DNA from: an uncultured archaeon
Lineage (GTDB): Archaea; Asgardarchaeota; Thorarchaeia; Thorarchaeales; Thorarchaeaceae
DNA: 58,036 bases
Direction of reading: 5' to 3'
Assembly: GCA_964610875.1 (NCBI GenBank)
Contig: CAZSWP010000025.1
Location: forward strand, 1 to 58,036
Part shown: positions 538 through 1,819 of the stretch, one piece after another
Layout: every line of letters starts with the position of its first letter
Numbering within the stretch: the stretch's first letter is position 1
Translations under genes and position numbers: made by a program
The notes under the pieces: generated by a model
The model's input: only the letters and a program-made list of their open reading frames with translations
The model's database searches: none
What the model was told of the DNA's origin: nothing

Positions 538-1819
538 TTGTGGTTGAAAAGAAAAGGACGAAAGGTTTCTCCACCTTGCAGTGTTAATTCTTCAAGAATA
601 ATTCCAAGATGGGCGTTCTCCCGCAGGTTTAAAATTTTCCAGGAAAAAACTAGAATCTCCAGATATTGGTTAGATTTGAGGGATTCACGATAGGCTAGTT
701 ATTCCATTGAAAGTTTCACCTTTTCACGAAAAACAACTGAATCGTGGCAAAGTAAAGGCTTTACAAATCTTTACTGACAAGACTGGTAAGTGGTGGGTGA
801 CCTTTGCAGTAAAAGTGCAAACATCTAGAAGAATCGTGGAAAGCCTACCTATAGATGTCTTAGGAATAGATCTAGGTATCGAGAAGTCTGCTTGCATGAC
901 CCTTGTTACTCCTAGTAAAATAAGAGAAACTCGATATTTCAAACAAGATGAAAAACTTCAAAGATTGAAGCAACTTGATAGCCAAGTTGCTAAACTTCAA
1001 AGAGAAATGCATGTTAGGAAAAACCAATCTCAACTCTATGAAAAGGTGGCTAGAAAACTTCGATTCATCAAATCAAAACGTGAAAGAACTGCAAAAGAAT
1101 ATGATCGAATTCTTGTTCGTGAAATCATAGACTACATCATTGAGCTTTCCAAACAATACAATCTATATGTTGCCTTAGGTAGACTTACAAATATCAGGAG
1201 TTTAGCTAAACGAGGGAAAAAACAAGGGAAGAAATTCAGAGGTATAATTCATAGATGGGCTTTCTCTCGAATAAGCAAGAGTCTAAGCCATGGTCTTGCT
1301 CAAGAAGGATGGTCTTTGGAGGGCAAAAACTCTCAGTTCCAGATTGTTTCTGAAGCATGGACTTCAATAATGTGTTGGAAATGTGGTCGAAAAGGATTAC
1401 GACCGAAGCAGAACTTGTTTGTTTGTCCTACATGCGGGAATAAATGCAATGCAGACATGAATGGAGCCATAAACATCGCTGGTCGTCTAATTACGCTCAC
1501 AAAGTCATTACACTCTGTGAGAGGACTAGGTAAGTGGGTTAGTGCGGTGGCACGAAGCAAACGACCGAAAGCCCAAGGGAAAATATCTCAAGGGAAGTCC
1601 TTACTCTCAAAAAAGGGACCCTCATCAGGTCCCAGGGAGTCCGCGGCCGTTCACTATGCTCAAACGAGCCTCACCAGTTTCAGTGATGGTGCTGGTGGGA
1701 GTGATGATGACCCTGCCGTGGAAAGAACTGTGGAAAAACTCTCTGTCGCTGGAAATGATGAATCAGCATCAGGACAGGGGAAAGAAGCCCGGTCTGTAGG
1801 AGGAATTCCATCCCAATGA
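532..1819 (+). pseudogene. tnpB: TnpB-family RNA-guided nuclease, N-terminally truncated and frameshifted near 686
   Basis: ORF 707..1819 has RuvC-I VLGIDLG, zinc finger CWKC..CPTC and RuvC-III NADMNGAINI. An upstream frame (532-693) reads LWLKRKGRKVSPP...RYWLDLRDS and shifts at GATTCACGAT into HDRLVIPLKVSPFH, indicating an internal deletion or frameshift. Confidence 0.85.

Follow-up and report, generated by a model that had tools for sequence, protein, structure and literature searches.

It was asked what kind of nuclease is encoded by an open reading frame (ORF) at positions 707–1819 of a 58,036-nt stretch of Thorarchaeaceae DNA (hereafter the window), whether it is active, and what it says about the origin of the eukaryotic Fanzors. 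A sequence-only reading had proposed an Asgard TnpB with a Fanzor-like, rearranged RuvC site. The ORF exists as described, on the + strand with a TTG start and 370 aa, but it covers no more than the 3′ two thirds of a gene that encodes ~557 aa and does not naturally start at this TTG. It comprises the end of the WED domain, the bridge helix/REC2, RuvC, the zinc finger and a disordered tail, as judged from the model of an intact homologue, and matches Pfam PF07282 and PF01385, together with NCBIfam guided_TnpB at an E-value of 3e-23, a match below the curated cut-off. A protein search with the ORF returned 507 relatives, the best 120 of which are 59–68% identical across the entire ORF, mostly 555–560 aa long and, where named, from Ca. 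Thorarchaeota; these domain matches and hosts bear out the call of an Asgard TnpB. Of 60 genomes that share the source genome's family, 41 contain matches; the source genome itself holds at least six longer paralogous ORFs. The window ORF is a deletion-damaged copy of this common Thorarchaeota (Asgard) gene for the RNA-guided nuclease TnpB. With high confidence, it is the remaining 3′ part of the TnpB that belonged to a Thorarchaeota mobile element with two genes, of the aCas1–TnpB kind already published, and would be a D-E(alt)-D nuclease when intact.

The four residues on which the rearrangement was called are present in the ORF translation. These are the RuvC-I aspartate D55 (869–871, +), within the DLG of GIDLG, which begins at residue 53; G158 (1178–1180, +), at the canonical RuvC-II glutamate position in YVALG (from residue 154); the alternative catalytic glutamate E216 (1352–1354, +) in IVSE (from residue 213); and the RuvC-III aspartate D250 (1454–1456, +) in the NADxN motif NADMN (from residue 248). 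E216 lies six residues before a C4 zinc finger formed by C223, C226, C240 and C243 (1373–1435, +), the two halves of which read CWKC from residue 223 and CPTC from residue 240. G158 might have been mere decay, or E216 unconserved; among the 120 homologues, position 158 is glycine in 119 (serine in the other), and E216, D55, D250, each of the four cysteines, W218-T219-S220 and the E216-x6-C223 spacing are kept in all 120. Because the acidic residues are invariant and the glycine nearly so, the G158/E216 rearrangement is real, and a trait of the family rather than decay. A conserved glutamate six residues ahead of the first CxxC belongs to the definition of the DphiG-Ealt class (PMC10711439), as does a glycine or proline in place of the canonical RuvC-II glutamate in rearranged TnpBs.

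In the family profile, G158 lines up with the canonical RuvC-II glutamate (IQMEDL) of an AsCas12f1-type structure, and in a joint alignment with 24 viral-contig DPG proteins, E216 falls in the same column as their glutamate. For one of these 24, that residue aligns to Glu467 of the mimivirus Fanzor2 (ApmFz2), which is catalytic according to mutagenesis (PMC10530073) and cryo-EM (PMC11832414). In an AlphaFold model of an intact homologue (mean pLDDT 70, low in confidence past residue ~455 and below 50 from residue 468), the glycine ends RuvC strand 336–342 and the glutamate comes after RuvC strand 395–398. Model secondary structure and the alignment to Glu467 together argue strongly that E216 completes the D-E-D triad. 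Judged from the alignments, the catalytic glutamate sits at an alternative, Fanzor-type position across the family.

The likeness to Fanzors raises the possibility that the family is their ancestor or sister, eukaryotes having inherited the gene from Asgard archaea. The position of the alternative glutamate and the glycine at the canonical site are common to the family and ApmFz2, and the host is an Asgard archaeon, yet RuvC-I reads DLG, never DPG, in all 120 homologues, and the published origin of Fanzors is from cyanobacterial IS607 pro-Fanzors (PMC10711439). In a quick-search tree of 90 sequences and 261 columns, from which Fanzor1, the cyanobacterial pro-Fanzors and TvTnpB were left out, the family nests in a clade of 49 archaeal DLG + E(alt) proteins (support 98), and the DPG proteins, which come from giant viruses and phages, fall in a clade of their own (support 99); four proteins with the canonical glutamate lie closer to the DLG + E(alt) clade than the DPG clade does. 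Forcing the family together with the 24 DPG viral-contig proteins costs 79 log units and is rejected by the AU test (p-AU 2.4e-6). A single origin of all E(alt) proteins is rejected more weakly (p-AU 0.008), in a test run after the tree was seen and on a limited reference set. Fold and profile matches also rank Cas12f and TnpB above Fanzor2: the intact-homologue model (Foldseek E 5e-15) scores Z 16–19 against Cas12f/TnpB structures and Z 14.9 against Fanzor2. Descent of Fanzors from, or alongside, this family is therefore largely refuted and hardly credible, and a separate origin of the family's rearrangement is favoured, in line with the earlier suggestion, made from the DLG motif, that this is not a Fanzor ancestor and may be an independent rearrangement.

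Nor is the rearrangement surprising or specific to Asgard archaea. In a profile search, nearly all distant relatives, including proteins of 380–470 aa, carry the Gly/E(alt) pattern, and members are named from Bathy-, Hades-, Altiarchaea, Odin-, Heimdall- and Atabeyarchaeia; the pattern spans a wider archaeal clade and predates the family. The DLG-type E(alt) class is itself published (PMC10711439, PMC10691335, PMC10530073), as are several RuvC-II-rearranged branches, some of them almost purely archaeal, and the DphiG + Ealt clade is distinct from the DPG clade that gave rise to Fanzors (PMC10711439). Thus both the RuvC-II rearrangement (as TnpB2, RIIr and DphiG-Ealt) and the pairing of TnpB with a giant Cas1-like protein are already in the literature, and the family belongs to a kind known computationally. 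The rearranged RuvC site provides no bridge from Asgard archaea to Fanzors, and with that the locus loses its headline appeal.

In its active site, the family resembles TnpB2/TvTnpB (Jiang et al. 2023, PMC10530073), RIIr (PMC10691335) and the DphiG + Ealt proteins (Yoon et al. 2023, PMC10711439), all with a glycine at the canonical position and a glutamate six residues before the zinc finger; RuvC-I likewise reads DphiG, and the spacing fits Yoon's second pattern (PMC10711439). It differs from these RuvC-II-rearranged TnpBs in its larger size, ~557 aa including a ~105-aa tail whose coding sequence the RNA overlaps, in the ~430-nt length of that RNA, and in having aCas1 instead of the IS605 TnpA. 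With Fanzor2 and the pro-Fanzors (ApmFz2, PDB 9B0L), it shares the position of the alternative glutamate and the overall fold; it departs from them in the DLG motif, its separate clade and its archaeal host, and no serine recombinase lies beside the family genes in the flanks seen.

An active-type nuclease, as had been claimed, describes the family, in which the D-E(alt)-D triad is invariant, but not the window copy itself, which is without its N-terminal third and promoter. Intact relatives are ~557 aa long, and paralogues in the same genome carry ~190 further N-terminal residues. Upstream of the ORF, residues 122–168 of the intact protein are found out of frame at 547–687 (+, frame +1; 49–62% identity to intact homologues). 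The codon for residue 168 ends at 687, yet that for residue 178 already begins at 683, which implies a deletion of ~32 nt with a frameshift at 683–706 (+); beyond it, TnpB continues in the frame of the ORF. Further left, at 16–546 (−), is a remnant of the giant partner protein aCas1, a context that the sequence-only account of the locus had missed. It covers residues ~823–990 of ~1,500 (tblastn/blastx to the partners at related loci, 38–41% identity, E 1e-27 to 1e-32), has lost its 5′ half and extends off the contig start. The two homologies meet at 538–547, that of aCas1 running leftward from 546/537 and that of TnpB rightward from 538/547. The simplest reading of this junction is one internal deletion of ~3.1 kb that would have cost both genes their 5′ ends along with the intervening promoters, taking aCas1 codons 1–~822, the ~250-bp intergenic region with its promoters and upstream motif, and TnpB codons 1–~120, and joining the remainder of TnpB to the middle of the head-to-head giant gene.

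Two public DNA runs hold pieces of this sequence, with no contig across either the 538–547 junction or the frameshift. The lesions at 538–547 and ~685 may therefore be assembly errors. With both 5′ ends lost and the frame shifted, the window copy very likely makes no working nuclease, and its RNA could at most serve intact paralogues in trans; among the public runs listed for the window sequence, none is of RNA. It is a poor reagent. The value that remains lies in the TnpB family, which is abundant and well conserved, and the intact paralogues on contigs C37, C16, C3 and C78 of the source genome are material for tests of cleavage, TAM, the large RNA and Cas1–Cas4 integration.

At related loci, the partner gene lies upstream of tnpB on the opposite strand, ~250 bp away, in 88 of 160 cases; among the 133 loci whose flank reaches 1 kb or more, 85 have it, roughly one locus in three being without it, and no other gene family recurs at comparable frequency near the 160 tnpB loci. 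The intact partner is 1,400 to >1,590 aa long and transcribed back to back with tnpB. It has no significant sequence match in Pfam, NCBIfam, the PDB or the ESM Atlas, or to a genome Cas1, and its identity as a Cas1 came from fold search alone. In a model of the N-terminal 560 residues (pLDDT 82), residues 1–235 have the fold of the Cas1 catalytic domain (Z 13.6, rmsd 3.9, 205 residues aligned), the top 12 fold matches of this region being all Cas1 or casposase, and residues 254–515 match Cas4 (Z 7.8). Proteins of the aCas1 kind were reportedly described by Makarova et al. in 2020. At two sets of loci (L098–L100 and L122–L123), TnpB modules that are 92% identical adjoin clearly different aCas1 N-termini, with homology stopping 133 nt upstream of tnpB, which suggests that the TnpB module may be exchanged between aCas1 partners.

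Altae-Tran et al. (2023, PMC10691335) distinguished two Asgard groups of aCas1-associated TnpBs, Cas1H-Asgard-1 and -2, whose loci have a variable region and then GTTCACTCA downstream of tnpB. The present family likewise has an Asgard host (named homologues and loci are mostly from Ca. Thorarchaeota), an adjoining diverged Cas1 homologue, a variable stretch followed by GTTCACTCA, and an NADxN RuvC-III motif, and it is filed under this kind because host, partner and motif agree; the window copy differs in being deleted and frameshifted. Flanking repeats are also expected of such loci; 15 loci with a complete aCas1 showed only isolated repeats of 12–13 bp, and the far end of the window element is off the contig. 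A Cas1-fold integrase within a mobile element also recalls the casposons (Krupovic et al. 2016, PMC4779613), and family 2 casposons likewise insert at tRNA genes (PMC4779613). Unlike in casposons, neither PolB nor terminal inverted repeats were found in the family elements, the Cas1 domain is joined in one protein to a Cas4-like domain plus ~1,000 further residues, and the element carries TnpB.

It could also be supposed that the element is a cargo-laden transposon of the IS607 type, moved by a serine recombinase, with TnpB acting as in IS607 and aCas1 as a passenger or helper. Contig C18 of the source genome carries, within 16413–22317 and 60861–66535, two further aCas1 genes, each with a serine resolvase gene (C18:16413–16808 and 60861–61253) 0.7–0.8 kb past its 3′ end, and the genome, 95% complete, yielded no Y1 transposase; because of these resolvases, aCas1 need not be the transposase. 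The C18 aCas1 copies, though, do not adjoin a member of this TnpB family, and aCas1 is the only conserved gene that recurs beside the 160 loci, no serine recombinase being recurrent within 5 kb of the 160 tnpB genes, where the far end of the element is rarely covered. Where aCas1 is complete, the next 80–580 bases hold tRNA or host genes and no shared end. Transposition of the IS607 type is considered rather unlikely, though a serious alternative to mobilisation by aCas1 itself, which is inferred.

The claim of a very large guide RNA has held up well. A scaffold of ~430 nt is predicted at 1505–1943 (+), where it covers the final ~105 codons together with 125 nt of the 3′ flank. The DNA is strongly conserved between ~1490 and 1943 and less so beyond; conservation of four-fold degenerate sites is 0.89 for the tail but 0.54 for RuvC; RNAalifold predicts 103 consensus pairs from 41 loci, 51 of them with compensatory changes; and the window sequence folds with a z-score of −4.5. 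By virtue of the four-fold-site conservation, the compensatory pairs and the folding score, a structured ~430-nt RNA is well supported at the level of sequence. The ApmFz2 scaffold, at 205 nt, is about half as long (PMC11832414). An Rfam scan of window positions 1–6000 found no family. Past the variable stretch, the window (at 1917–1925, +) and most loci carry the aCas1–TnpB signature GTTCACTC(A/G), the GTTCACTCA motif (PMC10691335). The putative right end of both element and scaffold is GGTCA at 1939–1943 (+), kept as GGT[CT]A in the 41 aligned loci; close-copy homology breaks here, 133–143 nt past the stop codon, and on the left ~130 nt before the start codon. Terminal inverted repeats formed by GAGTGAAC and GTTCACTC were considered and dropped, because close copies stay homologous for another ~70 nt to the left and ~25 nt to the right.

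The presumed guide of the window copy would, by TnpB architecture, be the host flank at 1944–1963 (+), which has no genomic match above chance level and is not tRNA-like. Elsewhere, flanks match tRNA genes exactly, over at least 13 nt from the GGT[CT][AG] boundary, at 10 of 60 distinct loci, against 0–2 loci at control offsets at least 8 nt away. These matches speak for a guide taken from the flank in the conventional way and for tRNA genes as common insertion sites, as far as sequence comparison can tell; no empty insertion site was found in 20 relatives. For the aCas1–TnpB loci, it has been suggested that the guide might be the sequence that precedes GTTCACTCA (PMC10691335); in this family, by contrast, the data point to a scaffold running on to GGT[CT]A, ~20 nt past GTTCACTCA, and the variable stretch co-varies with a motif upstream of tnpB. 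In the source genome, the right flanks of the copies at C3:150019 and C3:138224 match tRNA-Asp over 17 nt and tRNA-Gly over 14 nt, respectively, from the GGTC[AG] boundary, and the former shows a second end-plus-fragment repeat ~50 nt further along. Unlike type V-F CRISPR effectors (Cas12f), the window effector has no adjoining CRISPR array in a simple repeat scan. The same kind of scan at 116 loci gave one three-copy 14-mer ladder (redundant loci L003 and L083), 276–402 nt past the tnpB stop; this 14-mer begins GGTCAG and recurs with a spacing of ~63 nt, as a ladder of end-like sites.

Taken with the family's conservation, these features suggest how intact copies may work. A ~557-aa TnpB and a Cas1/Cas4-fusion protein of 1,400–1,600+ aa would be transcribed back to back, the ~430-nt omega-RNA being encoded over the TnpB 3′ end with host DNA past the GGTCA end as its guide. 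TnpB would then cut matching empty sites with its D-E(alt)-D triad, E216 standing in for the lost canonical glutamate as in TvTnpB and Fanzor2, and this cutting would help the element to persist or to insert anew, frequently at tRNA genes. The likeliest role of intact copies is that of RNA-guided nucleases whose cleavage of an unoccupied insertion site protects or spreads the Cas1-carrying element; cleavage and guide identity, like mobilisation, are inferred. Should the family instead be catalytically dead or altered, it would be an RNA-guided DNA binder that recruits aCas1, with a structural role for the conserved glutamate. Strict pairing with an integrase-like protein would fit such targeting, and the flanks are often essential tRNA genes, risky to cut, but equivalent rearranged enzymes (TvTnpB, ApmFNuc) cleave DNA, and neither the three acidic residues nor the zinc finger varies across 120 close and ~50 distant homologues. 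Because the triad is invariant, a non-cutting role is the less likely of the two, and is judged quite improbable.

The upstream motif lost from the window is a conserved ~75-nt, two-hairpin sequence ~95 to 25 nt before the tnpB start (loci L003–L162). It reads GAGTTCA...GAGTGAACTC and then CTGACC...GGTCAG, and lies between two TATA-like boxes; a bacterial promoter scan, unsuited to archaea, was at chance level. Its GAGTGAAC-TCAACTG is complementary to CAGTTGAG-GTTCACTC at the RNA 3′ end and co-varies with it by locus, and at 44 loci, which are related and not independent, cognate pairing is stronger than non-cognate pairing (−6.9 vs −5.3 kcal/mol). The motif may act as an RNA that pairs in trans, or it may represent a subterminal inverted repeat. 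An extended scheme, in which intact relatives are Cas1-mobilised RNA-guided elements with guides from tRNA-derived flanks and a ~75-nt upstream RNA that pairs in trans with the omega-RNA 3′ loop, is speculative and held to be unlikely. If true, it would make a two-RNA system unlike described TnpBs, in the intact relatives and not in the broken window copy.

Several other features stand apart. The same TnpB family has a further copy, in a more advanced state of decay, at 56487–57119 (−); it keeps the zinc-finger region and an RNA 3′ end with GTTCACTCA and GGTCA, and adjoins an apparent 16S rRNA gene starting near 57580. Fragments resembling the 5′ part of tRNA-Lys, with promoter-like sequence upstream, occur at 2393–2470 and 5320–5342, and recur on another contig (C73:880–957) at 95% identity. 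Downstream of the element, genes at 3028–3696 and 4272–5321 (+) have weak DUF5677 matches (E 2e-4 and 9e-5), and are possibly defence cargo.
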